Both the position numbers and the translations under genes were made by a program. Of a DNA stretch of 64,000 bases, positions 8,748 through 31,005 are shown piece by piece. The DNA comes from an uncultured Actinomycetes bacterium (lineage in GTDB: Bacteria > Actinomycetota > Thermoleophilia > UBA2241): contig CAVRZA010000006.1 in the NCBI GenBank assembly GCA_963725665.1, positions 64,001 through 128,000 of the forward strand, read 5' to 3'. The notes beneath the pieces were generated by a model. The model made no database searches. It saw only the letters and a list, made by a program, of their open reading frames with translations, and was not told the origin of the DNA. How positions within the stretch are numbered: the first letter of the stretch is position 1; each line of letters opens with the position of its first letter.

Positions 8748-10127
8748 TCAGTACCCCTTCAGGATGTCGATCATGATGTCGGTGGCCTTCAGGGCGTACT
8801 CCCTGGGCACCGTCAGCGGAGGCATGAAGCGGAAGACGTTGGCGTGACGTCCGCAGGGAGTCATGAGGATGCCGCTGTTGAGCAGCTTAATGGCGATCTC
8901 GCCGACGTACTTGCCCTCCAGAGGCTCCTTGGTCTTTCTGTCGGCGACGACCTCGATGCCGACCATGAGACCGTTGCCGCGCACGTCGCCGATGCACTTC
9001 ACCTGCGGCATGGCGTCGACGAAGAGGCCCTTGATCTCCTCGCCCAGCGTGGCGGCCCGGCCCATGAGGTCCATCTGCCGGGTCGGTGATGATGTCGATG
9101 TTCGTCATGCAGACCTCGCAGCCCATGGCGTTGCCGGCGAAGGTGCTCGGCTGCGAGCCCTCCGCCAGGCTGGCCTCCATGTCGGCCCGATACGTCACGC
9201 CGGCCATGGGCATGTCGCCGCCCATGCCCTTGCCCCAGGTCAGCATGTCGGGGACCACGCTCGAGTGCTCGATGGCCCACATCTTGCCGGTGCGCCCGGC
9301 GCCGGCCTGGACCTCGTCGGCGATGTAGAGACAGCCGTACTTCTCGCACGCCTGCTTGACGAGCTCCAGGAACTCCGGAGGTGGAACGACGTAGCCACCC
9401 TCGCCCTGCTGCGCTTCGACGATCACCGCAGCCACGTCGTCGAGACCTGTATACGGCGTGTTGAGCACGTAGTCGACGTACTTGCCGCACTGCACCTCGC
9501 AGTCGGGATAGGTCATACCGAAGGCGCAGCGATAGCAGTAGGCATAGGGAAGGTGGGTGACGCCCGGGATCAGGGGTCCCCAGCCGTGGCGATAGCCGTA
9601 CCCGGTCGTCAGGGCGGCGCTGCCGCACCAGACGCCGTGATAGGCGCCCTGGAAGGCGATGATCTGCGATCTGCCGGTGTGAGCGCGGGCGAACTTGATG
9701 GCCGTCTCGACGGCGTCGACTGCCGGCCTGATAGACGGCCGTGTGGCAGTTGCCCCTGAGGCCCTCGGGCATGACCCCGGAGACCTTCTTGGCCAGCTCG
9801 ATGCGCTTGGGGTTGGTGATGTCGGTGGTGTGCATGATGACGTCGCACTGACGGCGGATCGCCTCCAGCACCTTCGGGTGGCCGCGGCCGACGGCGTTGA
9901 CGGCGACGCCGGCGGCCATGTCGATGTAGAGGTTGCCGTCGGCGTCGTAGACAGTGACTCCCTTGCCGTGCTCCAGGATCACCGGGAAGCCGCCGCCGCC
10001 ACGAGTGAACGACTCGTACTTGGCCGACTCGGCCATCAGCGCAGCTGACCTTGGGACCGGGGACCTGCGTCACCATGCGGGGCGCATCGGGGAAGGACAA
10101 CTCCATCAGTTCGGACTCAGCGATCAT
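8748..10127 (-). CDS. Class III PLP aminotransferase (GabT-like), frameshifted
   Basis: DADGNLYIDMAAGVAV..GRGHP, FQGAYHG, EAQQGEGG, ADEVQAGAGRTG, MLTWGKGMGG, DVRGNGLM, FRFMPPL. Confidence 0.9.
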
Positions 10128-10149
10128 TCCTTCTCTCCTGATCATGCGA

Positions 10150-10864
10150 CGCACCTCAGTCCCCACACCAAGATGCCTGCCCTTGATGCTCTCGTTGTCG
10201 ATCAGCTCTTCCGGTGTCGACTCATAGACAATAGAACCCTTGCTCATGATGTAGACGTAGTCGGCGACTTCCATCGCCATGCCGAAGTCCTGCTCCACCA
10301 GGAGGATCGAGTGGCCCGCTCGCCTTGAGCTGCTCGATCACCCTGAACACCTCCTGCAACGACTATGGGCGCCAGCCCCTCAGAGGGCTCGTCCAACAAG
10401 ATCAGGTCGGGGTTGGTCATGAGGGCTCGGGCGATCGTCAACATCTGCTGTTCGCCGCCGCTCAGGAGGTTGCCCTTGTTCTTGCTCCGTTCTTTCAGCT
10501 TGGGAAAGAGCGTGAACACCTTCTCCAGCGTCCAGGGGTCCTGTTTGTCGCCGGTCCGGGCGGCCATCGTCAGGTTCTCGGTCACCGACAGCGACGGGAA
10601 GATCATCCTCCCCTGAGGGACGAGGCCGATGCCCAGCCGGGCGATCCTGAAGGGCGGCAGGCCGACGATGTTCTGGCCGTTCGAGGACGATGGCGCCCCG
10701 GCGCGGCGGCGTGAGCCCAATGATGGAACGGATGGTCGTCGTCTTTCCCATGCCGTTCCTGCCCAGGAGAGCGACGCAGGTCGCGTCCTTGACCTGCAGG
10801 GATACGCCCTGGAGCATGTAGCTGTCGCCGTACCAGGTGTGGATGTCATCTGCAGCTCGATCAT
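10150..10864 (-). CDS. Branched-chain amino acid-type ABC transporter ATPase (LivF-like), frameshifted; 3' end approximate
   Basis: LLGRNGMGKTT, LVPQGRMIF, LSGGEQQML, LLDEPSEGLAP, VEQ. Confidence 0.88.
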
Positions 10865-10869
10865 CGCTC

Positions 10870-11636
10870 GCTCACCCGTGGGCCTGCGGTGCTTGTGAGC
10901 GCCCATGTAGATGTCCCTGACCATCTCGTTGGAGCGCGATCTCGTCGCAGGTGCCCTCGGCCGACGATCTCGCCGTAGTGCAGAAGGAGGATGCGCTCGG
11001 CCACGCCGAAGACGAGGTCCATGTCGTGGGCGATCATAAGCACCGTGATCCTGGAGCCCAGCACCGCGGATGCGGGCGGTGATGTCGGCGCTCTCGGTCG
11101 TCGTCAGACCGCAGCTCGGCTCGTCGAGCATCAGCAGCTCAGGCTCGCTGGCGAGACACAGGGCCATCTCGAGCTGGCGCTGCCGCCCGTAGGCCAGCGA
11201 GCTCACGATCTCGTCCCTGAGGTCCCACATGTCCAGCGGACTCCAGCAGCGCTGGGCGGCTCGCCGTGAAGCGCCTTGTCCTTCATGAGATACCGGACGA
11301 TGCCGTAGCGCCTCTTCTGCACGCCCTGCAGAGCGATGAGCACGTTGACGAGGACGGTCTGCTGGGGAACAGGCTGGTGATCTGGAACGAGCCGAGCCAT
11401 GCCCAGGTGCGTGCGCGGTACACCGAGTGACTGGTGATGTCCTGGCCCTTGAAGAAGACCTTGCCGGCCGAGGGCTTGAGCTGGCCGGTGAGCAGGTTGA
11501 AGAGCGTGGTCTTGCCGGCCCCGTTGGGACCGATCATCGCCACTCTCTCGCCCGGCTCGACGCCGAACGTCACGGCCTTGACCGCCGCCAGTCCCCCGAA
11601 GTGCACCGAGAGCCCTTGGACGTCAAGCAGAGCCAC
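10870..11636 (-). CDS. Branched-chain amino acid-type ABC transporter ATPase (LivG-like), frameshifted; 3' end approximate
   Basis: FGGLAAV, IGPNGAGKTT, SFQITSLF, LAYGRQRQLE, LDEPSCG, AHDMDLVF. Confidence 0.88.
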
Positions 11637-11639
11637 GTA

Positions 11640-12725
11640 TCAGCCTCCTCCACCCGTTCACGAGCATCGGATCCGAGTCCTTCCCGCATGAGCATGATCA
11701 CCACCACGAACATCGCGCCCAGGATGAGCGGCCAGCGGTCGGGCAGGTAGAGACTAGCTAGGTACTCGATCCCAACGTAGAGGACGACGCGCCACGATCG
11801 GCCCCGCGAAGAGGGCGGCGCCGCCAAGGATGACGATCATGAAGCCGATCTCGGACGTCTGCATCGGCCAGGCTGTTCGGGGTGCATGACGCCGCCGAAG
11901 TAGGCGAACAGGACACCCGCCACGCCGCCGAACGCGCCGGCGATGACCCAGGACGTGTACTTGTAGAGCCACGTGTTGTAGCCAAGAGCCTGCATGCGTC
12001 GCTCGTTGTCGTGGATGCCCTCAGACCGTAGCCGTAGTGGGAGTTCTGGATCCGGTACATGAGGTAGATGCAGACGACCGCGAAGATGAAGACCAGGTAG
12101 TAGTACCTGGACGGCGTCATCCTCAGCCCCATCCCGAGCTCGGGGTCGGGGATACCGGCCATACCGGTAGACCCCCCGGTGAGCGAGCGCGCCGCGATCG
12201 CCACCCGGGATGCGATCTCTCCAAAGGCCAGCGTCACCAGCAGAAAGTAGATGGGGTTGGTGTTGCCGGCCCCCACACCGAACACCCTGAAAGCCGGGAA
12301 GCCCAAGAGGGCGGCCACGGCCGCAGCGAAGAGCACGGCCAGCACGAGGTTCAGCCAGAAGTTGGAGATGCCGGCGTGGAAGATCAGGATGCCAGCGGCA
12401 TAGCCGCCGGCGCCGAAGAAGACGGCGTGGCCGAAGGTCGGGATATTGGCATAGCCCCAGAGGATGTTCATGCTCATGGCGAAGATGGAGAAGATCATCA
12501 TCTTCGTGACGAGGCTCTGGAGGAACGACGGGATGAACGTCGGCAGCACTGGAGCGCGACGCCCACGATGATGATCGGCAGGACGGCCCGGAGCAGCGAG
12601 CCCCGAGCCCTCTTCACCGGAGCGGCGGCTTGCCCCTCGGCGACCTGAGCGTCGCCCGGGACACTCTCCGTCATGGGCTCGTCCGCAGCCTCGCCCACGA
12701 TGGTGCCTCCCTCTCGCTCGTCCAT
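11640..12725 (-). CDS. LivM-like ABC permease, frameshifted
   Basis: FAMSMNILWGYA..FGHAVFFG, IYFLLVTLAFGE, TGGSTG, VILGG, MREG. Confidence 0.87.
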
Positions 12726-13585
12726 CAGAACACCTTGCGACCGATCAGCCCGCTCGGCCTGACCAACAGGACGATGACGAAGATGACGTAGGACGTGAAC
12801 AGGGCCGCCGATGGGAAGTAGGCCTTGCCGAACGTGTCGAGGACCCCGATGATGAGCGCCCCCAACATGGTGCCCTGGATATATCCGGTGCCGCCGACGA
12901 TCACGACCACCAGGGTCAAGAGCAAAAGGTTGTCGCCCATCGAGGGATAGGCACCCAGGATCGGGGTGCCGAGAAACCCGGCGGCCCCAGCCAGGGCGAT
13001 CCCCAATACGAAGATCAGGGTGCTCACGAGACCGTAGTTGATACCGAGGCTCACGGTCATGTCTTTGTTATCCATCCCCGCCCGGATGATGGCTCCCCAG
13101 CGCGTCTTGTCCTGCATCCACCAGAGGACGCCCAGCACGACCAGACCGACCCCGACGATGAAGACACGGTAGATGGGAAACGCCAGATCGCCGACGTGGA
13201 TGACGCCGGTCAGCCGCGGAGGCGTCAGGCCCATCTGCGCGAACGGACCCCAGATCCAGAGCACGATGTTGGCGACTATGAGAGCGATGCCGATCGTGAG
13301 CACACCTTGCTCGGGAGGGTGGTTGTAGAGATGTCTGAGGAAGAAGTAGTAGAGAGCGAACCCGATCGCGGCGAGCCCGAGAGCTGCGACGACGACGCCA
13401 AACCAGAAGGCGTCAAGCCTGCCGACCACCGCGAGCCCGATGTAGGCACCAAGCATGAACAGGGCGCCGTGGGCAAGGTTGAGGACCCCCATGACGCCGA
13501 AGGTCAGGGAGAAGCCCGCGGCGACCAGGAAGAGGATGAACGCGTACGAAAGCCCGTTCAGTCCCGTGACCAGCACTTGGTTCAT
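12725..13585 (-). CDS. LivH-like ABC permease
   Basis: LNGLSYAFILFLVAAGFSLTFGVMGVLNLAHG, TRWGAIIRA, VVVIVGG, LLVRPSGLIG. Confidence 0.92.
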   Translation of the reverse strand: MNQVLVTGLNGLSYAFILFLVAAGFSLTFGVMGVLNLAHGALFMLGAYIGLAVVGRLDAFWFGVVVAALGLAAIGFALYYFFLRHLYNHPPEQGVLTIGIALIVANIVLWIWGPFAQMGLTPPRLTGVIHVGDLAFPIYRVFIVGVGLVVLGVLWWMQDKTRWGAIIRAGMDNKDMTVSLGINYGLVSTLIFVLGIALAGAAGFLGTPILGAYPSMGDNLLLLTLVVVIVGGTGYIQGTMLGALIIGVLDTFGKAYFPSAALFTSYVIFVIVLLVRPSGLIGRKVF

Positions 13586-13607
13586 ACGTCCCCCTAGCTT
13601 GCTCCAG

Positions 13608-13652
13608 CAGTGCGTCTGCACACGGGCTGCCAGTGCGTCTGCACACGGGCTG
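13608..13652. repeat. Perfect 22-bp tandem direct repeat in the livH leader
   Basis: CAGTGCGTCTGCACACGGGCTG at 13608-13629 and 13631-13652. Confidence 0.85.
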
Positions 13653-13740
13653 TCTGCTGGCCGCGCGCCTCGCTCTGGTCCATATCGCCGAGATACCTGT
13701 CGTCTAGACGCCGAGTCTCCCCCGGTGCCAGCAGGGAGAT

Positions 13741-13754
13741 GATATACCGATATC
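13741..13754. promoter_or_regulatory. Palindromic operator GATAT-N4-ATATC (putative IclR site)
   Basis: Perfect palindrome in the divergent livH/iclR intergenic region; motif recurs five times in intergenic DNA. Confidence 0.7.
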
Positions 13755-13860
13755 GGACTTTGGCAACACTGAATAGCGGACATCGCCATCTTGGCGCACG
13801 AACGCCTCACTCAATGCGCGAGAACCAGGGGAATTACCGGTGGCAGGCCAAGATTCACTT

Positions 13861-13876
13861 TGATACCGACATATCA
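13861..13876. promoter_or_regulatory. Palindromic operator TGATAC-N4-ATATCA
   Basis: Second copy, just upstream of the IclR gene. Confidence 0.7.
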
Positions 13877-13926: not shown

Positions 13927-14793
13927 GTGATGGGGGGTCTCTTGGCAACCAGGCCGTATCTGCGAGGCAAGGCAACGCTGCTCGAGACGACTTCGATCCG
14001 CAACGACGAAGCCCTATTGGTGCGCGCGTTGTCGAAGGGCCTCCTCGTGCTCAGCCTCTACGACGCCGACCATCGCGAGTGGAGTCTCGACCAGATCGTC
14101 GACCAGACGCGCCTTCCGCGGATGACCGCCTACCGCATGGTGAGAACGCTGGAGAGCGCCATGTATGTGGTGCGCGACCCGGCGACCAACCGCTACCACG
14201 TGGGTCCCGCCGTGATCGCGCTGATGTACCTCCGAGACGCGTACTTGGAGCTGGTCAGGATCGCGCGTCCCTACTTGGAGGCTCTCGCCGAGGAGGCGGG
14301 AGAATCCGCTACCCTCGCCGTCGAAGTAGATGGCGTCGCGGTCAGCGTCGACATGGTGAACACGACTCGCCCCTTCAAGCGGGAGCTGACGCCGGGCCGA
14401 ATCATCGGCGACACGGGCAACTGCAGCGGAAAGGTGTTCGCGGCGTTCAAGTCGCCCGCTGAGAGAGCACTGCTCGTCGCCTCGCCTCACGCGCAGTTGA
14501 CTCCGAACACCATCACCGACCCGGACGCGCTTGCCACCGAGCTGAAACAGATCGCGCGCAGCGGCGTCGCCTTCGACATCGAGGAGCGACACATCGGCAC
14601 CTGCGCTGTGGCGGCTCCGATCCGCGATCAGTTGGGAGCGGTCGTGGCCGCGATGGCGCTCGTGGCACCGACTGGGCGCTTCGGGCTCGAAGAACGGACG
14701 CGGTATGCAGAAGCGGTCAAAGCCAAGGCCGACTCCTTGTCGGCCTACCTCGGCTATTCCGCCCAACACCGTAGCTCAGAAGGCGTCGTCTAG
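13927..14793 (+). CDS. IclR-family transcriptional regulator (start uncertain)
   Basis: VRALSKGL..LPRMTAYRMVRTL HTH; GESATLAVEVDG; CAVAAPIRDQLG. Confidence 0.94.
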   Translation: MMGGLLATRPYLRGKATLLETTSIRNDEALLVRALSKGLLVLSLYDADHREWSLDQIVDQTRLPRMTAYRMVRTLESAMYVVRDPATNRYHVGPAVIALMYLRDAYLELVRIARPYLEALAEEAGESATLAVEVDGVAVSVDMVNTTRPFKRELTPGRIIGDTGNCSGKVFAAFKSPAERALLVASPHAQLTPNTITDPDALATELKQIARSGVAFDIEERHIGTCAVAAPIRDQLGAVVAAMALVAPTGRFGLEERTRYAEAVKAKADSLSAYLGYSAQHRSSEGVV

Positions 14794-15948
14794 GATTTCG
14801 GCGACGTCCTGCTTGCCGAAGGCGCGAGCGTTCGACCCGAGGAAGTCGTCGATCTGGCTCCACGAGAGCTCGACGACCTTGGGGATATCCTCGCGCCTGA
14901 GCCCGTAGTCCCGCAGCCGGTGCGCCATTCCTATGTGGTCGAGGAGCTGCTCGACCGCAACGATCGAAAGTCGAGCAGCCTCCAGGTCCGACATGCCGCT
15001 CACCTGCTGACCGAAGATCTCCGCGATGCGCTTGAACGCCTTCGTCTTGGCCGGCAGGTTGAAGCGCATCACTGCGGGAAGTATCGCCGCCATCGAGCGT
15101 CCGTGGGTCAGCTCGCAGACCGCAGCCACTCCGGTGGCGATGCCGTGCACCGCGCCGATGAACGAGCTCATGTAGGCCCAGCCACCCATGCTTGCCGCAA
15201 GGGCTAGGTTGTAGCGAGCCTCCCTGTCCGATCCGTCGGCGACCACCGCGCGCATATACCGGTTGCAGATCTCGAGGATGCTCTCGCTGAACAAGTCGGA
15301 CACGGGGTTCGCCTGCGTGCCCGTGAGGCACTCGATGCCGGTGACGAGGGTGTCGACGCAGGTGTCTGCGGTCGCCTCCGGCGGCATCGACATGGTCAGC
15401 AGAGGGTCGTTGATCACCACGTCGGCCAGCATGAACGGGCTGTTGATGGCGCCATGCTCGTGGGTCTTCTCGTCGATCCGCATGACCGCCGCGGAACCCG
15501 TGTCGGCCCCCGCGACGTGGGTCGTGGAGAGGACGATCAGGGGCAGGCCGGGCCGCGCCACCCTGTTGTGTCCCACCATGCCGCGCAGGTCCGTGCCGTT
15601 CGTCGCCGCCACGGCGACGCACTTGGCGATGTCCATGGCACTGCCCCCTCCGCAGCCGACCACCAGGTCGCAGCTCGAAGACCGAAGGAGCTCGACCGCG
15701 TCGGCAACAAGCTCGATCGGCGCGTCTGGGAGCACGCCGTCGTAGATGGTGAAGGGGATCTGCCCTTCCTCGAGTGACCTCAGCACGGGCGCTACGTCGC
15801 CACGCTCGATCATCGTCTTCTTGGTTACGACAAGGACCTTTGTGCCTCCCAGGGCCTTGACCTCATCGGCCAGTCCCGCAGCGGCTCCGAAGCCGAGGAT
15901 GAACTTGCTGGGCGACAGGAACTCGAAGCCGCCTAGGCTCGAAGGCAT
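14776..15948 (-). CDS. Iron-containing alcohol dehydrogenase
   Basis: GCGGGSAMDIAK, STTHVAG, INDPLLT.SMP, GAVHG, THGRS; RBS AGGAG. Confidence 0.92.
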   Translation of the reverse strand: MPSSLGGFEFLSPSKFILGFGAAAGLADEVKALGGTKVLVVTKKTMIERGDVAPVLRSLEEGQIPFTIYDGVLPDAPIELVADAVELLRSSSCDLVVGCGGGSAMDIAKCVAVAATNGTDLRGMVGHNRVARPGLPLIVLSTTHVAGADTGSAAVMRIDEKTHEHGAINSPFMLADVVINDPLLTMSMPPEATADTCVDTLVTGIECLTGTQANPVSDLFSESILEICNRYMRAVVADGSDREARYNLALAASMGGWAYMSSFIGAVHGIATGVAAVCELTHGRSMAAILPAVMRFNLPAKTKAFKRIAEIFGQQVSGMSDLEAARLSIVAVEQLLDHIGMAHRLRDYGLRREDIPKVVELSWSQIDDFLGSNARAFGKQDVAEILDDAF

Positions 15949-16035
15949 TGGGGCGCTCCTTTCTCTGATCGCGGACGCTCCAGCGGCCGTTGTGACTGAA
16001 CCACCCCTGCTCGCCGGCACTCGCCCGGCGGCCTG

Positions 16036-16200: not shown

Positions 16201-16239
16201 GGGGGAGGCTTCACGACTTGTGGTCGTGAAGCCTCCCCC
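16201..16239. terminator. 17-bp perfect stem hairpin after the substrate-binding protein gene
   Basis: GGGGGAGGCTTCACGAC-ttgtg-GTCGTGAAGCCTCCCCC. Confidence 0.75.
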
Positions 16240-16280
16240 CGCGAGAGTCAACTACCTGGTCCGCTCCACCCCTAAAGGCA

Positions 16281-17524
16281 TCACGGGTTCGTGAACGTCA
16301 CGTTCGGATACGTGTAGACGGGCATCCACCGGTAGTTGCCGTCGACCTTCTGCGTCTTGGCGATGTAGAAGTTGCCGGTGCCGACGAACACGCTTTCGTA
16401 CGGAGACATCGTCACCGTGCCGATCGGCGTGTCGATGCTGATGTCCGCCATGGCCTTCTTGAGCGCCTCAGGCGACGTGTCGCCGTTGGTCTTCTTGACC
16501 GCCGCCAGGAACAGATTGACCGCGGTCCACCCGCCGAAGGAGTCCATGTTGGGCAGCTCGCCGTTCCACATCTTGGTGTAGTCGGCGACGAACTTCTTAT
16601 TGAGGGGGTTGTCCAGCTGCGAGAGATAGTGGTCCGAACCGATGATGTTCAACGAGAGATCGCCGAGCTTCTTCATGACCGGCTCCTGGAGGTCGTCGGC
16701 CATGGTCATGACCAGCGGAGCGGTGATGCCGTAGTCGTTGTACTGCTTGATGAACGGACCGGTGCCGTTACCGAAGATCCAGTTGTACGTGCAGTCGGCC
16801 GGCTTCAAGGAGGTCAGGTAGGAACTGAAGTCGACCGTGTCGATGGGCACGTACTTCTCGGTCAGGATCTGACCGCCGCCCTCCTCGAGGGCCTTCCTGA
16901 AGCCGCGCATCAGCTCGTGGCCGGTCGTGTCCTCGTAGTTGATGGAGTTCGCCGTCTTGAATCCGAGCTGCTCGACCACGTACTTGCCGAGCAGGTATCC
17001 CTCCATCGCGAACATCCCGGCCGGGATGAACGACAGGTTGTTCCCCGTCTTCAAGTTGTCGGTCGGCTGGCCGAAGATCGAGATGGAGGGTATGCCACCG
17101 CCCTCTTTGCCCAGATAGCCGGTGACAGCCGCGTTGGCCGGCGAAAAGATCGGACCGAGCATGACTTGTATCTTGTCCTGCTCCACAAGCTGCCGGGCCT
17201 TCTCGACGGCCTGGGTCGGATCGGAGTTGTTGTCGGCCTTGATGTACTCGAGCGGCCTGCCCATCCACTGGTTGTTGACCTCTGCCATAGCGGTCTTGAT
17301 GCCGTGCTCGGTGAGGTTCGCGTCAACGGCCATAAAGCCCGTGAACCCCTCATCGAACCCCATCTTGAGCGGCTCTCCGGTTGCTGCCGGCACCGGCGAC
17401 GCCGACGCCGAGGCAGAAGCGCCACCCCGGAGGTCCCGCTCGAGCCGCACGAGGCCAGAACGAACGCGCTGATCGCCAGCATGAGCACGAGCACCAAGAA
17501 TATTGTCAGTGGCTTCTTGTGCAT
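16281..17524 (-). CDS. ABC substrate-binding lipoprotein (LivK/type 1 PBP family), one frameshift near 17430
   Basis: Lipobox VLASC after hydrophobic signal; GRPLEYIKADNNSDP, GPIFS, DFSSYL, NKKFV, DTPIG. Confidence 0.9.
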
Positions 17525-19948: not shown

Positions 19949-19964
19949 GGCGGATCGCATAGCG

Positions 19965-21638: not shown

Positions 21639-21772
21639 GAATCCCTTGTCTCCGAGCTAACGCTCTCGCAGATCACATCTCGTGCCTCCGCGAGGACATC
21701 GAAGAGAGCATCATCGCTCTCTCTCGAGATGTCCTCCCCGCTGAGCGGCACGCCAGGAACAGGTGTAGGTGA

Positions 21773-21788
21773 TGATATTCCCATACCA
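21773..21788. promoter_or_regulatory. Palindromic operator TGATAT-N4-ATACCA
   Basis: Upstream of the BKACE-SDR-thiolase-MoaF operon. Confidence 0.7.
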
Positions 21789-21900: not shown

Positions 21901-22748
21901 TTACCGCCCCGTCCCGGCATACCCGAAGAACTCGGAGAGCGACGCGGCGGTCGCCTTCACCGCGTCGGCGCAGGCCTGTCTCTCCTCGAGACCGAAGCGA
22001 CCGGTCGGGACCACGAGCCCCAGCGTGGCGATGACGTTTCCCATCTGGTCGCGGACGGGCGCGACGACGGCACACGTGCCGATGTCGCGCTCTTCGAGGT
22101 CGAACGCCACACCCTCGCTCCTGACCTTCTCCAGCTCGCGCGCGAGCTCGCGCGGGTCCGTGATCGTCCTGGGCGTGCGTCGAGCGCGCGGCTGGTTGAC
22201 AATGGCTTCTCGTTCGGCGTCCGACTTCCAGGCCGCGAACGTCTTGCCGTGGGCGTTCGCAGTGTCGCCGATGACGCGCCCGACCGCCACCTCGCGTTTG
22301 AGGGGCCGCGTCGAGGCGACCATATCGACGCAGACCGCCACTCCGTCGACCTCGACCGCCAGAGTGGCCGACTCACCGCTCGACTCAACCAGCGATTCGA
22401 GATACGGGCGTGCGATCGCCACAAGCTGGGCGTAGCCTTCGGACAGGTAGATCGCCGCCAGCAGAGCGGGGCCTAGATGGTACCTGCCGGTCACCGGATC
22501 GGTGACCAGGTAGCCCGCACCCTGCAGGGTGCGGGCCATGCGGTAGCCGGTCATGCGCGGCAGGCCCAGTCGCGCCACCATCTCGTCGAGGCTCCACTCG
22601 CGATGCTCGGCGTCGAAGAGGCCGAGCATCGCGAGCCCCTTGGCCAACGCCCGGACTACGAACGGGATCATCGCCGTCGGCGCTGCCCGACGCTGCCCCC
22701 AGCCGGCCCGCGTTTGCGCTTGCTCCTGGATCGATCCCCTTTTGCCAT
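21901..22748 (-). CDS. IclR-family regulator (read in-frame with upstream AOR in this sequence)
   Basis: VRALAKGL..LPRMTGYRMARTL, GESATLAVEVDG, CAVVAPVRDQMG; own RBS GAGGAAG and ATG at 22748 is out of frame. Confidence 0.88.
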
Positions 22749-22763
22749 GACTTCCTCGATGTC

Positions 22764-24477
22764 CTAGCTCGGCGAACACGCTGTCGAGGTCTGCCTCGCT
22801 CACGTCGAAACGATTCCCGGTGGGCGGCAACGCCTCGTTCACCATGAAGGCCGGCAGCCTGTCGTCGGCCGCGGTGAAGCCGGCGCGACGGTTGAAGTCG
22901 CGCTCCTGCTTCACGATCTGGCTGCCCAGAACGATGAGGTAGTCCTCAGGCAGCGCTTTACCGGTGAGGGCCGCCACGGCGGAGACCAGTTGGCCCTGGA
23001 GCTCCGGCATGTCGAGCGGGGGCAGGCACGCGAACAGGCACATGCCCAAGGCATCGATCGCGGCGAAGTAGGCCTGCAGGAACTGCGACATCTGCGCCTG
23101 CCCCTCCGACGAGCTTGGGTCGTAGGCCGGGTTGGCGGGGCTGGGCAGAGCGTTGCCCGCTGTGTGGTCCCCACCCTGAGGGCTGGTCGCGTAGGTGACC
23201 CCGGTGCCCTTGAGCACCCTCGGTTCCCAGGCGGCGATCCCCTGGCCCTTGACGGCGGGTATGCGGGCGACTCCGAGCGCCGTGCCGGTGGCGACGCAGC
23301 CGTTGGCGATCAGCCTGGCGTTCTCGTCGCCGGAGGTCAGCTTGCCGAGCAGCTCGTGCACGGCAGCACCGTCGCCCCAGGGGAGCAGACCGCCCTCCAT
23401 GGCGACCCCGACCGCCGCCCCAATCTCGATGGTGTCGAGCCCGAGGTCGTCGCAGAGACGGTCGATGCGCGCCAGTTGATCGAGGTCGGTGATGGCGCAG
23501 TTCGAGCCCAGGAGCCCCAGGCTCTCGAACTCGAAGCCCGAGGTGACCTCGTTGCCGTCTTCGTCGGTGAAGACTTGGGAGCAGTTGATCACGCAGCCCG
23601 CCATGCAGCGGTGCTTGGCCTCGCTGTTCGGGCGTTCGGCCATCAGCTCCACCAGGCGCGCACCGTTGATCTTGTCTGCGCCCTCGAACTCACCGGCCGA
23701 GAAGTTCCTGGTGACCAGGCAGCCCATGGGGTTGGCGACATCCACGAGGAAGGCTGAGCCCAGCGCCTCCAAGGCCCCCACCGCCGGGTGCGAGCGGATG
23801 CCCTTCGAGAAGCTAGAGGCCGCGGCCTTCATGGCGGCCGGGTCGGCGGGCTTCACAGCACGACCGCCGGCATCGTCGATGACGATGGCCTTGAGGTTCT
23901 TGGCGCCCATGACGGCGCCCAGGCCGCCCCGGGCCGCGGCACGCAGCCGGAAGTCGGGACTCGTCACCGTGACCGACGCCGCCTTGAGCTGCAGCTCGCC
24001 CGCGGGCCCGGCACAGATGATCGACACACCTTCGCCGTAGCGCTCGCGAAGTCTCTGCACGGTGTCACGATTCCCGAGCCCCTTGAGCTCGCCGGCCGCC
24101 ACCAGCGCACCTCCGTCCGCCGCCACCTCAAGGAGGCTGAGCGAGTCGGCCCGACCCGTCACCTTGATGCCGCGCAGGTCGAGTTGGGCCATCTTGCGGG
24201 CGGCCGACCCACCTGCGTTGGCCTCTTTGATGCCGCCCGTCAGCGGGCTCTTCGCCCCGACCGAGAGCCGGCCGCTGTTGGGGATCGACGTACCGGCCAG
24301 GATGCCCGCGGCGTACACCAGGACGTTGTCGGGACCGAGCGGATCCGCCTTGGGGTCGACCTCCTGGGCCACGATGGCAGACGTAAGGCCGTGACCGCCG
24401 AGCTTCTCCAGCTCTTCGGACAGCGCCTCCCTGGTCACCGTGCCGTGGGTCAAGTCAACGTTGAGAAGGTCGGCCAT
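22764..24477 (-). CDS. Aldehyde:ferredoxin oxidoreductase (tungstopterin AOR family)
   Basis: AKSPLTGGIKEANAGG, GPAGE, AARGGLGAVMGAKNLKA, CMAGCVINC, EFES, CDDLGLDTI, DALGMC, ERDFNRRAG, DRLP. Confidence 0.92.
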
Positions 24478-24586: not shown

Positions 24587-24601
24587 TGGTATCAGGATAT
24601 C
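24587..24601. promoter_or_regulatory. Palindromic operator TGGTAT-N4-ATATC
   Basis: Upstream of the AOR-IclR genes. Confidence 0.7.
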
Positions 24602-24621
24602 GATTCGTGCCAACAAGGTCC

Positions 24622-25413
24622 CTACCGGCCCGTATAGGTCGGCTTCCGCTTCTCGAGGAACGCCCTGGCGCCTTCCTTCTGGTCGTCGGTGCCGAAGCAG
24701 AGGGCGAACAGGTCGCGCTCGTAGCTCATGCCGACGGAGAGCGGCGTCTCGATGCGACTTGTTGACGGCGATCTTGGCCAGCCTGAGCATCACCGGGCTG
24801 TTCCTCAGAAGATCGCCGACCAACTGCTCGGTCGCCTCCCTGCAGCTCGGCCAGCGGAACGACTCTGGTTGACGATGCCTAGGCCGAGCGCTTCGTCCGC
24901 GGACATCATGCGCCCGGTGAAGATGAGCTCCTTGGCCCTCTTCTCGCCCATCAGACGCGGCAGCATCTGCGTCCCTCCGCACCCCGGGATGACGCCCACC
25001 CGGATCTCGGGCTGACCGAACTTGGCGCTGTCTCGCGGCGATCGATCGAGTCGCACGCCAGGACCAGCTCGCACCCGCCGCCGAGAGCCAGGCCGTTCAC
25101 CGCGGCGATGACCGGCTTGGGCATCTCGCGGATCGTCTCGTACGGACGCCTTCTCGCCTTGGCGGTTATGACGTCGACGGGGTACCTCGACGGGAACTGG
25201 CTGATGTCGGCGCCGGCGCTGAAGGCCTTCTCGCCGGCGCCGGTGATCACCACCACGTACACGTCGTCGTCGAGCGCTGGCCTGTTCCAGCGCCTGCGAC
25301 GAGCTCGGCGCGCAGCTCGTCGCTCTGCGCGTTGAGCACTTCGGGCCGGTTCAGCGTGATCCACGCCGCGTGTCGGCCTTCTCGTAGATGATCGACGCGT
25401 ATTCACCGGGCAT
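24622..25413 (-). CDS. Enoyl-CoA hydratase/crotonase, frameshifted
   Basis: TLNRPE.LNA, ITGAGEKAFSAGADI, PVIAAVNGLALGGGCE, FGQPEIRVG, AFLEKRKP. Confidence 0.9.
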
Positions 25414-25422
25414 GGGTCTCTC

Positions 25423-26624
25423 CTAGCTGTCTTCAGCTCTGATGATCGCGCGCGTTGTTGCCCGCCATGCCGTAGACCTCGGACATGCCCACCTTGGCGC
25501 CCTCGACCTGCCTCGCCCCGCACTGGCCCCTCAGCTGCAGGACCATCTCGTAGACCTGGGCGAACCCCTGGGCCATGGTGGCTTCGCCGAAGCTCGAGAA
25601 GCCCGCCGCTGGGGCAGACCGGGAGCCTGCCGCCGATCATCGTCTCGCCGCGCTCGAGCGCGAGGTGCGCGGTGCCCTCCTCGAAGAGGCCCATGGTCTC
25701 GAGGTACTGGAAGTAGTGCCACGAGCTGTTGTCGGGGACTTCGACGAAGTCGACGTCTTCCGGGCCCATGCCCGGCCTGCTCGTAGGCCGCCTTCGCCGC
25801 CACCCAGCTCTCGCTGATGATCGGCACGCCCTCCTTGGGCTGGAAGCCCAGCACCGGGATGCGGGTCGTCGGGTCGCCGTACAGCGGACTGCCCAGAGCC
25901 GCGAGCGCCGATCGTGATCGGCTTGCCGGTGTACTGCTTCGCCTTCTTGGCGCTGCACAGGATCACCGCGCCGGCCCCGTCGCTGGTGGCGCAGATCTCG
26001 TAGGAGTCGCAGCGGGTCGGTGACCATCGGCGACGCGAGGACCTCCTCGAGGGTGAACTCCTTGCGGTAGCGGGCCATCGGGTTCAGCGCGCCGTGCTTG
26101 CTGGTCGCGACCTTCACCATGGGCCAGGTGCTCGTCGGTGATGCCGTGCCTGGCCATCTTCTTGCGGCATTCGAGCGCCCAGAAGATGGGATTCGGCAGG
26201 CCCATCTGCCAGCGCATGGTGTCGTCGGACGGCACCGGCTCCTCGTGGTACGGCGGCAGGAAGGGGAAGAAGCCCTTCGCGGACTTGTCGGCGCTCACGG
26301 CGAGCACGACGTCCGCGTAGCCGGAGGCGACCATCGCCGCCGCGACGGTGATGCACGTGCCGCCGGTGGCGCAGGCGTTGTTGACGTTGATCGTGGGCAC
26401 GCCGGTGTAGCCCATCACCTCGTCGAAGTAGTTGCCCGAGTAGATGCCCTTGCGACCTCCCCAGTTCTGCGAGCCGGAGACGACCGCCTGGACGTCCTTC
26501 CAGCGGATCGCCGGCGTCGGCCAGGGCCTCGTTGGCGGCGTCCGCACGCCATGTGGGTCCAGAACTTCTCGGGGAACTTGCCCCACGGATGCAGCCCGAC
26601 GCCGATGATCGCGATCTCTTCCAC
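25423..26624 (-). CDS. SCP2-type thiolase / lipid-transfer-protein family, frameshifted
   Basis: IIGVGLHPWGKF, NVNNACATGG, HGALNP.ARYRK, DGAGAVIL, CPSGG..SFGEATMAQG, RQVEGA. Confidence 0.87.
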
Positions 26625-26663
26625 TGTCCGTCTCCCTTACGAAAGCCGAGCCGCGGGAGGCGC

Positions 26664-27095
26664 TCAGACGCTCTTGAACTTCCAGCCGACGAGCTCCTCG
26701 CCCTTCTTCGTTCGTGTAGAGCACGGGACGACGGTCTTGACTTCCATGCCGATGGAGACGTCGGCGGGAGCGCAGTCCTCCATCATGCCGATGATGTGGA
26801 TGCCTTCGGGCAGTTCCGACCGCGACCACGGGGATCGGCTCGGTAGTCCTTCGACGCCACGTAGGGCGGCGGCGGCGGATAGCTCATGGCTGAGTAGTGT
26901 CGAGACCGTGCCGGTCGGGACTGAGGGGGACGTCTTCGACGTCCCTGGCCTCGCACTCCGGGTTGTGGCAGGTGAAGGTCCTGCGGGAAGAAGTAGTCGC
27001 CGCACGACTTGCAGTGCGTGCCGATGAGATGGCCGTCACCCAGCTCCGGAGATGAACAACCCCTCCCCCAGCAGCACTCGCTTGATCTCCGTCAT
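26664..27095 (-). CDS. Zn-ribbon/OB-fold (DUF35, ChsH2-like) partner protein, frameshifted
   Basis: HLIGTHCKSCG.YFFP...CHNPEC; ELPEGIHIIG..VSIGMEV..VGWKFK. Confidence 0.85.
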
Positions 27096-27135
27096 GTGTG
27101 ACTCCCTCCGTATCGCAGCTGCAGTGGCGAGCTTC

Positions 27136-28356
27136 TCAGTCGACGACGCGACTCCTCTCGGAGCCGGGGATCTCGTCGGGGCCGTAGCCGAGCTCCGACG
27201 AGGATCTCCTCGGTCTGCTCGCCCAGTCGAGGCGTCGGCGACTTGATCGACGACAGGCGCCTCGCAGAACTTGGTCGGTGCGTTGATCGACCTGATGCGG
27301 CCGAGATCGGGCTGATCGACCTCGACGAAGAAGTCGTTGATCGAGGGCCTGCGGGTCGTCGATCACGTCGAGCGGGCGAGAGGATCGGCCCGTACATGAG
27401 GTTCTCGCCGCGTCAGTCGCGTCTCCCACTCGGCGTACGTGCGCGGCAGGAGAAGACCTCGTTCAGCAGCGGCGACAGCACGTCGCGATGCTCCTGTCGC
27501 ATGTCCGTCGTCGCGAAGCGCGGGATCCTCCGCCAGGTCCGGCCTCTCCATGGCGCGGCAGAACGCGGTCCAGAACGCGCTGCCGGAGGGATCGGCGGCC
27601 TTGGCATAACGATCGGCCGCCGTGAGCTGCAGCCAGCGCCCGTCTTTGCACTGGTAGACGTCGTAGAAGGGGTTGTCGGACTTGGACGGGTCCACTCGCC
27701 TCAGAGGCAGGCCGAAGAGCGCGTCCATGACGTCGGCGCCCACCATCCACACGCCGGTGTGGTACAGGTTGAACTCGACCTTCTGGCCCTCGCCCGTCCG
27801 CTCCCGGTGGTAGAGCGCCGCCGCGATGCCGCCGAAGATCTGCATCGACGAGACGCTGTCGATGATGCCGGGGCGGGAGGCCGGTGGAGGAGTGCCCGGG
27901 GCGCTCAGCATGTCCTGGATCCCCGAGCGCGCCCAGCCGGCGGCGAAGTCGTAGCCGGCCATGTCCTTGTCGGGTCCGATGGTCCCGTACGCCGACACGA
28001 TCCCGTAGATGATCCTCGGGTTGATCTCGCGGAGGGTCTCGTAGTCCAGCCCAGCCGCTCGAGAGAGCCGGCCTGGTAGTTGGTCAGGAACACGTCGTGA
28101 CTCGCGCACGAGCTTGTACACGATGTCCTTGCCGGCCTCCTGCTTCAGGTTGACGGCGATGCTCTTCTTGCTGCGATTGTGCAGGTAGAACCCGGGATTG
28201 ACGTCGGTCCCGCGGAACGTGCGTGACTGGTCGCCGGTGAGCGGCTCGACCTTGATGACCTGCGGCGCCGCAGTCCCCCATCATCGAGGAGGCCGCCGGG
28301 ACCGCCACCACGTGCCCCATCTCGATGATCCTCACGCCCTCTAGTATGTCTGCCAT
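27136..28356 (-). CDS. Family III CoA-transferase (CaiB/BaiF), frameshifted
   Basis: LEGVRIIEMGHVVAVP, IKVEP, NRSKKSI.VNLK, INPRIIY..SAYG, GYD, IID, ALYHRERTGEGQ, PRLGEQTEEIL. Confidence 0.9.
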
Positions 28357-28498
28357 GCGTCCCTCCGTAGTGTGGCAGCAGGATCCCTGCGATCGAACGT
28401 GATCACGTCCCGCGTGACGCGCGGCCGCTGAGTCGTTACGGCGCGCAGCCTCCCCACGCCGACGTGGTCTCCCGCACGCGGACGCGTCTGCTCGATAA

Positions 28499-28514
28499 TG
28501 GTATGTGCATATCA
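28499..28514. promoter_or_regulatory. Palindromic operator TGGTAT-N4-ATATCA
   Basis: Upstream of the CoA-transferase/DUF35/thiolase/crotonase operon. Confidence 0.7.
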
Positions 28515-28666
28515 TATCGCAACAGAGGGATGCTACAAACAGCTCGCGCGAGTCCGGTCGACTCCACGCCGGTGAGGGCACGCGCAGGCGCAGTCGAGCT
28601 GTGCGTACCTTCGAGCGGGCGGGCGCAGCCGGTCTGCGACGACGACGTGCGAGCGGGCCAGCGGGC

Positions 28667-29464
28667 TCAGTCGACCGGCAGCCCGAAGAAGTCGCGCGGG
28701 TTCTCCCAGCAGACCTCGTCGATCGTGGTCTCTGTCGAGACCCATCAGGCGCATGGCGAGCATCACGCGCGGCACCATGAAGTAGTCGTTGCCCTGGCCG
28801 CCGAGCTCGGAGTTGATGAGGATCCTGCTCGCGCCCGTCGGGGTTGTCGATCACGAAGCGCGCGGCCGCCTCGGGCGGCATCTTGTCCCAGCAGATGGAG
28901 AGGCCCACCATGGCGCCGGTCCCCATGCGGAAGTCGAGCGTCTCCTCGCCGGCGTGGTCGAACACGCAGCGCTCCACCGGGAAGCCCTCCTCCTCGATGA
29001 TCTCCAGGACCCTGGGCGTGACGGTCTGACCCTGCGGCGCCAGGCGGATCGGCGTGTGCAGGATCACCGGCAGGTCGTTGGCCTTGGCGAGGCGCAGGTG
29101 CTCGCGGAAGAGGTCCTCCTCGAACTGGGTCGCGCAGTCGAGGCCGATCTCGCCTATGGCCACGACGCGCTCGTGCTCCAGGAAGTCGGGCAGCTTGGCG
29201 AGGCACGTCTCGGCGTCGGCGTGGTTGACGCCGAAGAAGGGCACCGAGAGAGAGGCGAACGCCTCGAAGCCGAGCGTCTTGGCCGTGTTGACCTCCATGG
29301 TGAGGAAGCGCTCCCAGAGGAGCAGCACGGTGTCGGCGTCGTGGCGTGCCGAGGAACATGTGCGGGCTGGGGATCACCGCCGCATCCATGCCCATCATGA
29401 CCAGCTTCTGGAGCTGGACGTCCTCGATCATGTCGGTGTGCAGATGCGAGTCGATGAACCTCAC
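28667..29464 (-). CDS. TatD-like amidohydrolase-superfamily metallohydrolase, frameshifted
   Basis: FIDSHLH, AIGEIGLD, LPVILHTP, FDHA, INSE, ENPRDFF. Confidence 0.85.
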
Positions 29465-29489
29465 GTGAAGCACCTCCCTCGACCGTAGC

Positions 29490-31005
29490 CTACGACGTTC
29501 CGCCCGTTCGACCACGCGGCGCGAGCGCCGCCGACGCGCTGCCCCGTCGGCCAGGCGGCGCGAGCGCCGCTACGACGCCCCGCTTCGTTGCGGTGGCCCG
29601 TCGCCGCAGCTCGTCCCACAGACCGCGCACGTGCTCCAGCTCGGTCGCCTGCGCGCCGATGGAGACGCGGATCATCTGCCTGCCCTTGAGCACCGACGGC
29701 GTCAGGTAGTAGCGACCGCCGCGGTTGATCTCGGCGGCGATGGTCAGGTTGTGCGCCGCCAGCGCCGGCTCGTCGCCGCGCAACCTTTCGGGCACGTGAC
29801 GCAGGCAGACGGTCTGCAGGGGGACCGGCGCGAGGCGCTCCCAGTCGCGGCTCTGCGTCGACCTGCTCCTTGAGCCACTGCGCGTTGGCGACGTCGCGGC
29901 GCAGCCGAGCCTGCAGCCCCTCCACGCCGTGCTCCCTGATGAGGAACCAGAGCTTGAGGGCGCGGAATCGGCGCCCGAGCGGGATGCCCCAGTCGCGCAG
30001 ATTGCGCGCCACGCCGTCGTGCGCCGTGCGCAGGTAGCTGGGGTCGGTGCTCATGACCCGCACGAGGTGCTCGGAGTCGCGTACGTAGTAGGCGGAGAGG
30101 TCGAAGGCGGTGCCCAGCCACTTGTGCGGGTTGAACACCAGCGAGTCGGCCGCCTCGACGCCGCGCCACATCCAGCGGAACTCGGGACAGATCATGGCCG
30201 AGCCGGCGAGGGCGGCGTCGACGTGCAGCCACATGCCGTGGCGCCGGGCGACGGCGGCGATGTCGGCCACGGGATCGAGGGCGGTCGTGGCCGTCGTTCC
30301 GACGGTGGCCACGACCGCACACGGGCGTCGACCCGCCTCGAGGTCGGCGGTCACGGCGGCCTCGAGGAGGTCGACGCGCAGGGCGTGCTCGTCGTCGGTC
30401 GCGACGAGACGCAGGTGGTCGCGACCGAAGCCGGCCAGCAGGGCGGCCTTGGGGATCGAGCTGTGCGCCTGGTCGGAGGCGTACACGACGAGCGGCGGCC
30501 CCTCGCCTTGCAGGCCGCCGCTCTCCTGACCGAAGTCGGTTGCCCGCTCGCGCGCGCACAGGAGGGCGCACAACGTACAGGTGCTGGCGGTGTCCTGGAT
30601 CACGCCGCTGAACGTCTCGGGCAGGCCGACCATCTGACGCAGCCACTCCATGACCACGTTCTCGACTTCGGTGGCCGCCGGGCTCGTCTGCCAGCTCATG
30701 CCCTGACTGCCGAGCCCGGTCGAGACGAGGTCGGCGAGCACCGACGAGAGGTCGGCGTTGGAGGGAAAGTAGGCGAAGAAGCCGGGGTGGTTCCAGTGGG
30801 TGATCCCCGGCAGCACCAGGCGTTCGAGGTCGGCGACGATCGACTCGAACCCCTCAGGCCGCAGCGGTGGCTCGGCGGCGAACAGCGCCTCGAGGTCCCC
30901 CGGCTCGACGCGGCTCATCACGGGGTACTGCTCGATGCGCTCGCGGTAGTCGGCGATCCACTCGACCAGCTCGTGACCGAGACGGCGGAACTCCTCGGGG
31001 TCCAT
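29490..31005 (-). CDS. Group II PLP decarboxylase, aromatic-L-amino-acid decarboxylase type; one frameshift near 29850
   Basis: MDPEEFRR.G, PGITHWNHP.FFAYFP, WQTSPAATE, AHSS, HVDAA, FNPHKW, DWGIPLGRRFRALKLW. Confidence 0.92.

Follow-up and report, generated by a model that had tools for sequence, protein, structure and literature searches.

What do the catabolic genes at positions 8748-31005 of this stretch break down, and do they form a single pathway? The stretch, called the window here at its full length of 64,000 nucleotides, is C6:64001-128000 (contig CAVRZA010000006.1) of a 12-contig, 3.73-Mb, 68% GC genome from an uncultured Thermoleophilia-class actinobacterium (assembly GCA_963725665.1; contamination estimate, 5.04%). 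An earlier note, made from the letters of the DNA, saw in these genes an oxygen-independent route from an aromatic amino acid through amine, aldehyde and acid to an acyl-CoA, with most of the operons sharing one operator. All of the gene families that it listed were recovered by Pfam in 8748-31005, including four Liv-type ABC genes with a binding protein and two thiolases, one of them SCPx-type with a DUF35 partner. The families and the shared operator thus held up, and the damaged state of many of the genes had been overlooked. As for the pathway, co-regulation and a possible module for converting amine to aldehyde to acid survive scrutiny, but the decarboxylase, the iron-type alcohol dehydrogenase (Fe-ADH) and the BKACE, SDR and thiolase genes do not belong to it. 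The best explanation, which we rate at slightly better than even, is an island for the oxygen-free breakdown of plant trihydroxybenzenes (pyrogallol, phloroglucinol) under one shared repressor site, with an attached aminotransferase-MoaF-AOR module. The stretch is most likely the middle of a catabolic island of about 60 kb in a Thermoleophilia-like genome. Our gene map of 8748-31005 and its flanks was made by mapping intact orthologues from related loci (numbered with the prefix L) onto the window; 73 open reading frames (ORFs) between 5.5 and 35.5 kb were scanned with Pfam, and smaller fragments were scanned separately.

A probable trihydroxybenzene core

At the center of this reading is a transhydroxylase pair (31772-35209, minus strand) beyond the range covered by the earlier note. 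The large subunit gene, AthL (32617-35209, Pfam AhtL-like_1st), has one frame change at about 33952; its orthologue in L020, 85% identical to the window gene, matches the Pelobacter acidigallici transhydroxylase chain 4v4c_A over its full length at 1214 bits, against 263 bits for the next family. Directly adjacent is a small subunit of the BthL type (31778-32647, minus strand; Pfam Fer4_11 and CarboxypepD_reg), which here has 4Fe-4S dicluster and carboxypeptidase-regulatory-like domains. Full-length AthL homology with a BthL-type neighbor identifies the pair as a transhydroxylase. Compared with the Pelobacter AthL/BthL system, the window gene differs in its frame change, and there are other AthL/BthL-like pairs in the genome, more distantly related. 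The genome's four detected AhtL-like N-domains are all at C6 63-104 kb and on a second contig, C7. Three further AthL/BthL-like pairs were noted at window positions 700-4126 (with a frameshifted 5′ end) and 39373-43037 and at 16116-19430 of L081, the part of C6 just upstream of the window.

The second element is an operon on the minus strand that is preceded by an operator without mismatches (21773-21788, overlapping the -10 of a promoter-like site). It comprises an intact gene for a beta-keto acid cleavage enzyme (BKACE; 20784-21638; Pfam, 313 bits), a short-chain dehydrogenase/reductase (SDR; 19968-20737; one frame change by Pfam and mapping) that is a candidate ring reductase of the phloroglucinol-reductase type, an acetyl-CoA acetyltransferase-type thiolase (18757-19948; one frame change; Pfam and orthologue mapping, with NCBIfam run on the L020 orthologue) and MoaF. 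The BKACE, SDR and thiolase genes are orthologues of a conserved cluster that in relatives also carries a 3-hydroxyacyl-type dehydrogenase (3HCDH) and a cyclase-family ring hydrolase. Two gene orders, each in 11 loci, recur among the best 80 of 554 confirmed BKACE relatives' loci, of which 25 are actinobacterial. Type A is [AthL-BthL]-AOR-IclR-3HCDH-BKACE-SDR-thiolase-cyclase-(CoA-transferase-DUF35-SCPx-crotonase)-IclR-aminotransferase-(MoaF); L020 and L014 read AthL-BthL-AOR-IclR-3HCDH-BKACE-SDR-thiolase-cyclase-CoA-transferase-DUF35-SCPx, followed further on by IclR-aminotransferase. Type B is (Mo enzyme)-(Liv + binding protein)-3HCDH-BKACE-SDR-IclR-MBL-fold hydrolase-SDR. Desulfatiglans-type loci (L030, L033-L036) likewise pair AthL/BthL-like genes with BKACE-3HCDH-thiolase-SDR.

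These are the families of a known route. SDR, cyclase-family, 3-hydroxyacyl-CoA-dehydrogenase-like and BKACE enzymes of Clostridium scatologenes (named PGR, DPGC, TfD, TAL) were demonstrated by Zhou et al. 2023 (PMC10470551) to break phloroglucinol down, and relatives of the window cluster co-locate the same four families together with a thiolase. The core route would end in acetoacetate and acetyl-CoA. The earlier note had placed BKACE, SDR and thiolase in an amine route; they belong instead to a phloroglucinol-type cluster beside a true pyrogallol transhydroxylase. Differences from the Clostridium cluster are that the window has lost the dehydrogenase gene, that MoaF stands at the relatives' cyclase position and that control is by IclR and a palindromic operator. 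Moreover, the AOR, class III aminotransferase, MoaF, Liv importer and CoA-transferase/DUF35/SCPx/crotonase genes, all of which share the operator here, are not listed in the cluster descriptions of PMC10470551.

One residue of BKACE bears on a lysine-fermentation-like alternative, in which a Kce-type BKACE would cleave 3-keto-5-aminohexanoate and the aminotransferase would serve as a 3-aminobutyryl-CoA transaminase ahead of a thiolase. Kce is the best NCBIfam model for the window protein, at 289 bits, and a class III aminotransferase and a thiolase are present; the score, however, is below the cut-off of 382. Phe18 of the window BKACE aligns with the Glu of the GAE motif in 2y7d, and relatives have F, M, L or W there. 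This is the position of the amino-binding Glu in Kce and of Trp16 in CsTAL (PMC10470551); going by the tag offset, the Glu of 2y7d would be the ‘Glu14’ of that paper. The window BKACE accordingly lacks the amino-binding Glu, as TAL does. Neither the window nor relatives yielded an aminomutase or a diaminohexanoate dehydrogenase, and the cluster adjoins AthL/BthL, so that we regard the lysine-like route as extremely improbable.

Several observations weigh against the trihydroxybenzene reading. 3HCDH is intact upstream of BKACE in 38 of the 80 loci and in a second cluster on C6, but the window has only a stump, and a cyclase gene, one of the four defining enzymes, was not found in the stretch by Pfam or orthologue search; two of the four are therefore absent from this copy. 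In relatives, the cyclase is present in 10 of the 25 actinobacterial loci and reads E/M-P-G where the characterized hydrolase has Trp20/Tyr22, the pair of DPGC. Since the orthologous cyclases have this motif and that of the second cluster has W-P-Y, the window-type cluster may act on a different cyclic substrate. The SDR is indistinguishable from gluconate-5-dehydrogenase-like SDRs: its match to 5g4k, which we take to be a phloroglucinol reductase despite a generic entry title, has an E value of 1e-35 and ranks below gluconate-5-dehydrogenases, and the names of its best 120 protein matches are generic (SDR family, gluconate 5-dehydrogenase, one ‘hypothetical protein’). We know of no step in phloroglucinol breakdown that needs an aminotransferase or an AOR, and the aminotransferase-MoaF pair is found without a BKACE orthologue in 8 of 15 other aminotransferase-holding genomes. 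Finally, a conservative count against intact orthologues gives 18 or more frame changes, spread over 11 of the 20 genes, and the copy may be dead.

Several further features of the neighborhood concern the ring-cleavage genes. About 30 kb upstream (C6 49-53 kb) is a second, more divergent and apparently complete phloroglucinol-type cluster (L081, C6:44001-64000, positions 930-12880), in the order Liv ABC and binding protein, BKACE, cupin, a cyclase that carries W-P-Y, 3HCDH, SDR, IclR, SDR and ADP-forming acyl-CoA synthetase; with one mismatch allowed, the cluster contains no copy of the operator palindrome. An MBL-fold hydrolase (Vmh-like, below cut-off) is located about 2-4 kb downstream of BKACE in L004, L008, L012, L013, L015, L016, L018 and L025. 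It occurs only in loci without a cyclase, never together with one, and could be a non-homologous replacement of the ring-opening hydrolase. In L014 (1381-6110) and L017 (894-7609), the region upstream of the cluster encodes a Mo hydroxylase of the xanthine-dehydrogenase family, which is accompanied by an FAD/Fe-S/pyridine-nucleotide-disulfide subunit and a diaminopentanoate-dehydrogenase-like domain and could represent another feeder route. UbiD-type (gallate-decarboxylase-like) genes were looked for and are not in the island.

A shared operator in four promoter regions

Are these operons under common control, as the earlier note had claimed? The operator is a 16-bp palindrome, TGRTAT-N4-ATAYCA, derived from the IclR/3HCDH spacers of relatives and not from the window. 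At up to two mismatches the window has five sites (13740, 13861, 21773, 24587 and 28499), against 0.60 expected, and none of 100 shuffles reached five; at three mismatches, extra sites appear only inside coding sequence. Seven sites at up to one mismatch exist in the entire 3.73-Mb genome, five of them in this stretch, and one further site precedes the paralogous AOR on C7 with the same 16-mer as the window AOR site. The five sites make up four promoter regions: the divergent LivH/IclR1 spacer, with two palindromes (13740-13755 and 13861-13876) that each overlap a promoter-like site, and the regions upstream of BKACE, of AOR (24587-24602, one mismatch, overlapping the -10 of a promoter-like site) and of the CoA-transferase gene (28499-28514, no mismatch, between the TatD-like and CoA-transferase genes). 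Between 13.5 and 29 kb there are five sigma-70-like promoter matches, against 1.6 expected, and four of the five overlap operator sites. In relatives, the operator immediately precedes 3HCDH in each of the 25 actinobacterial BKACE loci and is also found upstream of AOR and, in L010, L017 and L023, upstream of the aminotransferase. The window scan gave no operator upstream of the decarboxylase, nitroreductase, Fe-ADH, binding-protein or AthL/BthL genes. The claim of one operator is thus confirmed for most of the operons, and co-regulation is supported by both site number and promoter overlap. What these sites predict is most likely an IclR-type regulon, in which one repressor would bind the palindrome and switch four units together: the Liv importer and aminotransferase with the divergent IclR; BKACE-SDR-thiolase-MoaF; AOR-IclR; and CoA-transferase-DUF35-SCPx-crotonase.

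Other pattern searches were less useful. A first guess at the operator from the window's own spacers, ATACCG-N3-4-YATC, gave six matches against 0.14 expected in what was a circular test, and in 471 kb of relatives' sequence it has 2 matches, no more than chance would give, both of which, to judge by position, apparently lie in coding sequence. A pattern related to it was not significant, and pairwise 16-mer comparison of the spacers gave GC-rich noise only.

The members of these units are as follows. The Liv-type importer (10161-13585, minus strand; Pfam ABC_tran and BPD_transp_2, with L004 proteins mapped) consists of LivF (10161-10844), LivG (10892-11636), LivM (11626-12564) and LivH (12728-13585), the first three frameshifted. 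Divergent from it is the intact IclR1 gene (13927-14793, plus strand; HTH_IclR and IclR_C). The AOR gene, of the aldehyde:ferredoxin oxidoreductase family (22768-24477, minus strand; AFOR_N/AFOR_C), has lost its stop codon and is read through into the second IclR-family regulator, IclR2 (21910-22719, minus strand; Pfam and mapping). The fourth unit, also on the minus strand and frame-disturbed in all of its genes, for which NCBIfam was run on intact orthologues, encodes a crotonase (enoyl-CoA hydratase; 24625-25416), an SCPx-type thiolase (25451-26627), a DUF35/ChsH2-type OB protein (about 26664-27119) and a CoA-transferase III (27200-28356). These four families, here in one operon, are also those of the Bbs-type beta-oxidation modules. 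The thiolase orthologue, however, matches BbsB at only 151 bits, far below the cut-off of 750, and with its best model, PRK06059 (‘lipid-transfer protein’), it reaches 390 bits where the cut-off is 424.

The aminotransferase-MoaF-AOR module

What, then, is an aminotransferase doing in a predicted regulon for ring cleavage? The class III gene (8751-10127, minus strand), last in the Liv operon, is seen as Pfam fragments in three frames, and the intact L004 orthologue maps onto it in four pieces, that is, with three frame changes. Its orthologue is within 10 kb of BKACE in 11 of the 25 actinobacterial loci. It is directly followed by MoaF in at least nine loci (L006, L010, L014, L017, L170, L172, L173, L174 and L176) and in L003 and L004 comes straight after an AOR-family gene. 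Among 151 sampled genomes of the host class, 11 of the 12 with a close MoaF also have the aminotransferase orthologue, which in the 12th is cut by a contig end. Only 7 of the 10 BKACE genomes have it, and 8 aminotransferase genomes are without the BKACE orthologue; it therefore belongs to a module of its own.

The nature of the substrate is a separate matter. The closest solved relatives of the aminotransferase are GABA aminotransferases, and its NCBIfam relatives are GABA or omega-amino-acid:2-oxoglutarate enzymes. It is co-transcribed with the importer in the window and stands beside a binding protein or an amino-acid permease in relatives, which suggests an imported amino substrate. The window's own binding protein, an intact Peripla_BP_6 lipoprotein gene (16281-17450, minus strand), has orthologues beside MoaF or the BKACE cluster in L004, L010, L013 and L025. 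Its closest solved chains are 4zpj, 4ey3, 4evq and 4f06, and it is nearer to proteins of the 4ey3/4evq/4f06 type, which presumably bind aromatic acids, than to LivJ-like ones. As a separate observation, two hairpins (8671-8705 and 16201-16239) with near-identical 17-nt stems (four arms, against 0.48 expected) are located at the 3′ end of the aminotransferase operon and at that of the binding-protein gene.

The third member, MoaF (17908-18723, minus strand, 33 nt after the thiolase gene), is intact and has both Pfam domains, PF10703 and PF17409. To our knowledge MoaF has no known function; its Klebsiella counterpart is paired with moaE, which we take to be a dehydrogenase gene. A single-protein query found one MoaF locus and an alignment query 316. 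In 17 diverse loci 120 ORFs were called, and the 47 lying no more than about 2.5 kb from the gene were scanned for neighbor families. Class III aminotransferases and SDRs turned up in five loci each, APC amino-acid permeases in three, and an aldehyde dehydrogenase accompanied by a deacetylase-family gene and a TRAP transporter in one each; four loci showed nothing related. The C-terminal domain (residues 152-270, a barrel) has the phenolic acid decarboxylase fold, and the residues invariant in 19 homologues include R165, Y170, Y176, E177, H178, Y180, D200, H205, W218 and E220. Neighbors and fold together give hints of a phenolic ligand. The Klebsiella moaEF operon is placed in the MoaR-controlled monoamine regulon by PMC6813237 (citing Murooka 1996), and the literature linking MoaF with monoamines is thin, this one secondary citation. 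Common to both settings are the two MoaF domains and, in other phyla, frequent SDR, aminotransferase and amine/amino-acid permease neighbors. Here, by contrast, MoaF follows a thiolase gene and in relatives is paired with a GABA-aminotransferase-like enzyme, the regulator is of IclR type and not MoaR, and no amine oxidase is present.

From the genes alone, an oxygen-free route from an amino compound to aldehyde to acid by aminotransferase, MoaF and AOR is plausible. In the most likely arrangement, this separately inherited module would take an imported amino compound through aldehyde to acid without oxygen, and the CoA-transferase/crotonase/SCPx set would then activate and shorten an acid. The earlier proposal for these genes is supported by their recurrent linkage, with adjacent aminotransferase and MoaF in at least nine loci, AOR before aminotransferase in two and operators before the aminotransferase in three; the GABA-aminotransferase-like character of the enzyme speaks against it. 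A bolder version, which we offer tentatively and consider unlikely, is that aminotransferase, MoaF, AOR and Liv importer are an oxygen-free substitute for amine oxidase and aldehyde dehydrogenase on phenolic amines, that MoaF, as a tandem beta-barrel, binds or converts a hydroxyphenyl-aldehyde and that one IclR couples the module to trihydroxybenzene ring cleavage. If this were true, catecholamine-like compounds could be fully mineralized without oxygen.

An alternative is that the aminotransferase and AOR handle semialdehydes released by ring cleavage, such as the malonate semialdehyde of an aldolase-dependent phloroglucinol branch, interconverting them with omega-amino acids or oxidizing them to acids. 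Such a branch, yielding acetone and malonate semialdehyde, is described in a review (PMC13039779, citing Li et al. 2024); the GABA/omega-amino-acid:2-oxoglutarate enzymes nearest to this aminotransferase act on carboxylated semialdehydes, and the aminotransferase and ring-cleavage operons have a common operator. Yet Pfam scans found no aldolase gene in the stretch, the link to an importer and, in relatives, to a binding protein or permease points to uptake from outside, and the aminotransferase-MoaF pair exists in the eight genomes without a BKACE orthologue. We consider this alternative unlikely and retain an imported amino compound as the more likely substrate of the module.

Two side observations concern the genes around AOR in relatives. 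A beta-eliminating lyase of the tyrosine phenol-lyase/tryptophanase family is directly upstream of the operator-bearing AOR in L006 (4805-6013) and L010 (4578-5981). L010 also has an MTTB-family gene upstream of AOR, and the window has an MTTB-family gene at 44536-46230.

Bystanders and the origin of the genes

The decarboxylase was the entry point of the arylalkylamine pathway in the earlier note: aromatic amino acid to amine by the decarboxylase, to aldehyde by the aminotransferase, to acid by AOR or alcohol by Fe-ADH, and then to an acyl-CoA for beta-oxidation-like cleavage, with Mo enzymes shifting ring hydroxyls. The family of the gene (29595-31005, minus strand; frameshifted at about 29846) is not in doubt. 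Pyridoxal_deC scores 337 bits against a cut-off of 27. The best solved relative, and the ground for accepting the aromatic-L-amino-acid type, is the bacterial 7xin_A ‘DOPA decarboxylase’ (presumably from Pseudomonas putida), aligned over residues 2-385 at E 3.6e-164 and 550 bits; the next match, at 347 bits, opens a series of tyrosine/DOPA decarboxylases, and plant and animal aromatic amino-acid decarboxylases are far behind (about 1e-100). No NCBIfam equivalog cut-off was reached.

It is as a pathway member that the decarboxylase fails. It has no operator. The earlier note had itself named a failure of the genes to co-occur in relatives as counting against its reading, and for the decarboxylase this is what is seen. 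Within 8 kb in 80 loci of relatives at 45-83% identity (threshold E 1e-15), there was no nitroreductase, AthL/BthL, AOR, IclR of this type, 3HCDH, BKACE, cyclase, CoA-transferase, MoaF, Fe-ADH or binding protein of this type, and the sole island matches were a TatD-like gene in one locus and weak (29-34%) aminotransferase matches in nine. Its neighbors vary in own-family relatives, where different class III aminotransferases adjoin only in L085 and L088. The phyletic pattern is also the opposite of that of the island genes: 21 of the 25 genomes from the host's own family have an orthologue (71-81% identity), and among these 25 BKACE is found once and aminotransferase and MoaF not at all, and a second family (f4) has BKACE in 9, aminotransferase in 15 and MoaF in 13 of 25 genomes. 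For IlvC, encoded in the same window, identity is 76-80% within the own family but only 63-67% with f4; BKACE, conversely, is 78-83% identical to f4 orthologues, and aminotransferase orthologues are confined to f4. These identities and phyletic patterns argue that the operator-controlled genes, and with them the island, were probably acquired horizontally; the decarboxylase, which is outside the regulon, seems to be native to the host family.

In favor of the arylalkylamine pathway there are the DOPA-decarboxylase family of this gene, the linkage and common operator of aminotransferase, MoaF and AOR, the phenolic acid decarboxylase fold of MoaF, the beta-eliminating lyase upstream of AOR in L006 and L010 and the place of moaEF in the monoamine regulon (PMC6813237, citing Murooka 1996). 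It is contradicted by the decarboxylase results above, by a GABA-aminotransferase-like aminotransferase, by an Fe-ADH that is not conserved nearby and by BKACE, SDR, 3HCDH and cyclase genes that have no role in it yet match the phloroglucinol route. We judge it very unlikely.

Fe-ADH (14776-16020, minus strand; intact; Pfam, with NCBIfam below every cut-off) is matched at 27% in one of the 80 BKACE loci and at 32% in one MoaF locus, and a hairpin separates it from the binding-protein gene; its proposed membership is likewise not supported. The remaining neighbors are a TatD-like metal hydrolase (28698-29473, 5′ end approximate, minus strand; two frame changes by Pfam and mapping) and a nitroreductase-family gene (31034-31696, minus strand; Pfam), which lies 28 nt upstream of the decarboxylase, beyond the range of the earlier note, and is duplicated together with it on C7. 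Neither partner of the decarboxylase is conserved in relatives. We judge the decarboxylase, nitroreductase, TatD-like gene and Fe-ADH to be bystanders, outside the regulon and the conserved neighborhood.

State of this copy

Is the damage real? The case most easily misread is the decarboxylase, for which the 514-aa ORF is misleading: full-length relatives have 470-474 aa, and at about 29846 (about codon 386) the gene leaves their frame and runs on in another to 29595. AOR reads without a stop into IclR2 as one 858-aa ORF, a fusion that results from four inserted single bases at 22666-22767 by comparison with the C7 copy, in which IclR is a gene apart from AOR (570 aa). Crotonase and DUF35 are probably disturbed too, in addition to the counted frame changes. 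Upstream of BKACE, a 262-bp spacer holds the last 35 or so codons of the 3HCDH (TfD-like) gene at 21635-21742 on the minus strand, about 870 bp having been deleted; the remnant was found by tblastn of six relatives' proteins on a 361-bp spacer region (best E 4e-4, in a small search).

Either the copy was poorly polished or it is decaying. A GC3-phase hidden Markov model, counting same-strand phase switches per 8-kb bin, gave a genome-wide median of 6; in the first 104 kb of C6, 10 of 13 bins have at least 11, compared with 46 of 461 bins overall. An excess that spans the whole of these 104 kb favors poor consensus quality, and the 3HCDH deletion favors real decay. Public sequencing runs did not decide the matter: the best-matching runs contained at most 0.09 of the sampled words, and four runs had only relatives 88-95% alike, whose contigs, like those of the metagenome-assembled relatives, are without the window's extra bases at 19961, 20596, 24843, 25034-25049, 25275, 25296 and 25771, a result that cannot separate error from mutation. 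Relative to the C7 copy there is no clear indel bias, with 16 single-base insertions and about 9 single-base deletions in the window.

The possibility must be weighed that this is a decaying, non-functional duplicate, with function supplied by the second cluster (C6 49-55 kb) and the C7 copy. The number of frame changes is consistent with it, as are the deletion of about 870 bp, which is atypical of base-calling error, the fact that AthL, BthL, AOR and IclR each match in a single reading frame on C7 and the complete second set upstream. On the other hand, the raised switch density across the first 104 kb of C6 and again at the contig's end looks like a problem of consensus quality, the C7 decarboxylase is also frameshifted, at a different place, and no gene required in-frame stop-codon decay as an explanation; the operators and promoters are intact, and so are the short genes (BKACE, MoaF, binding protein, Fe-ADH, IclR1), as a per-base error rate would predict. 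We consider decay possible but on the doubtful side, and continue to read the genes as parts of a trihydroxybenzene island. As an observation in its own right, same-strand phase switches at C6 1-104000 and 568000-576000 are 2-3 times the genome median, which suggests regionally poor consensus quality at the contig ends. The C7 region (C7:1-14000, L082) is a paralogous or co-binned partial island copy at 87-91% nucleotide identity, in the order IclR-SDR-IclR-AOR-TatD-decarboxylase-nitroreductase-BthL-AthL, with the CoA-transferase block present as short remnants only.

Significance and flanking features

The breakdown of polyphenols without oxygen is relevant to how anoxic soils store carbon (PMC10470551), and a literature search pairing Thermoleophilia with phloroglucinol found no paper, judged by titles, linking the route to this class. 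New here are the placement of pyrogallol/phloroglucinol genes in a predicted IclR regulon with a defined operator and the inclusion in it of aminotransferase-MoaF-AOR and CoA-transferase modules that the published clusters, as described, do not contain. The conserved pairing of MoaF with amine- and carbonyl-handling enzymes, with its phenolic-acid-decarboxylase-like domain, makes its function testable. There are also two practical lessons: gene lists from raw long-read assemblies can hide pervasive frameshifts, and adjacent genes can differ in evolutionary history.

Both flanks of the studied part carry molybdenum-related genes. The plus-strand stretch 4127-8215 has a ferredoxin-like 4Fe-4S gene, a hydrophobic segment and a bis-MGD enzyme that is PhsA-like and includes an Fe4S4 domain. 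In L004 the orthologue is one 1059-aa protein, and this Mo enzyme is beside the BKACE cluster in 11 related loci. On the other side, between two transhydroxylase-like gene pairs, is a Moco (molybdenum/tungsten cofactor) riboswitch (35450-35608, plus strand; 54 bits against a gathering score of 36), followed by a frameshifted molybdate-binding-protein-like region, an ABC permease and ATPase (36518-38300) and MobB (38742-39278).

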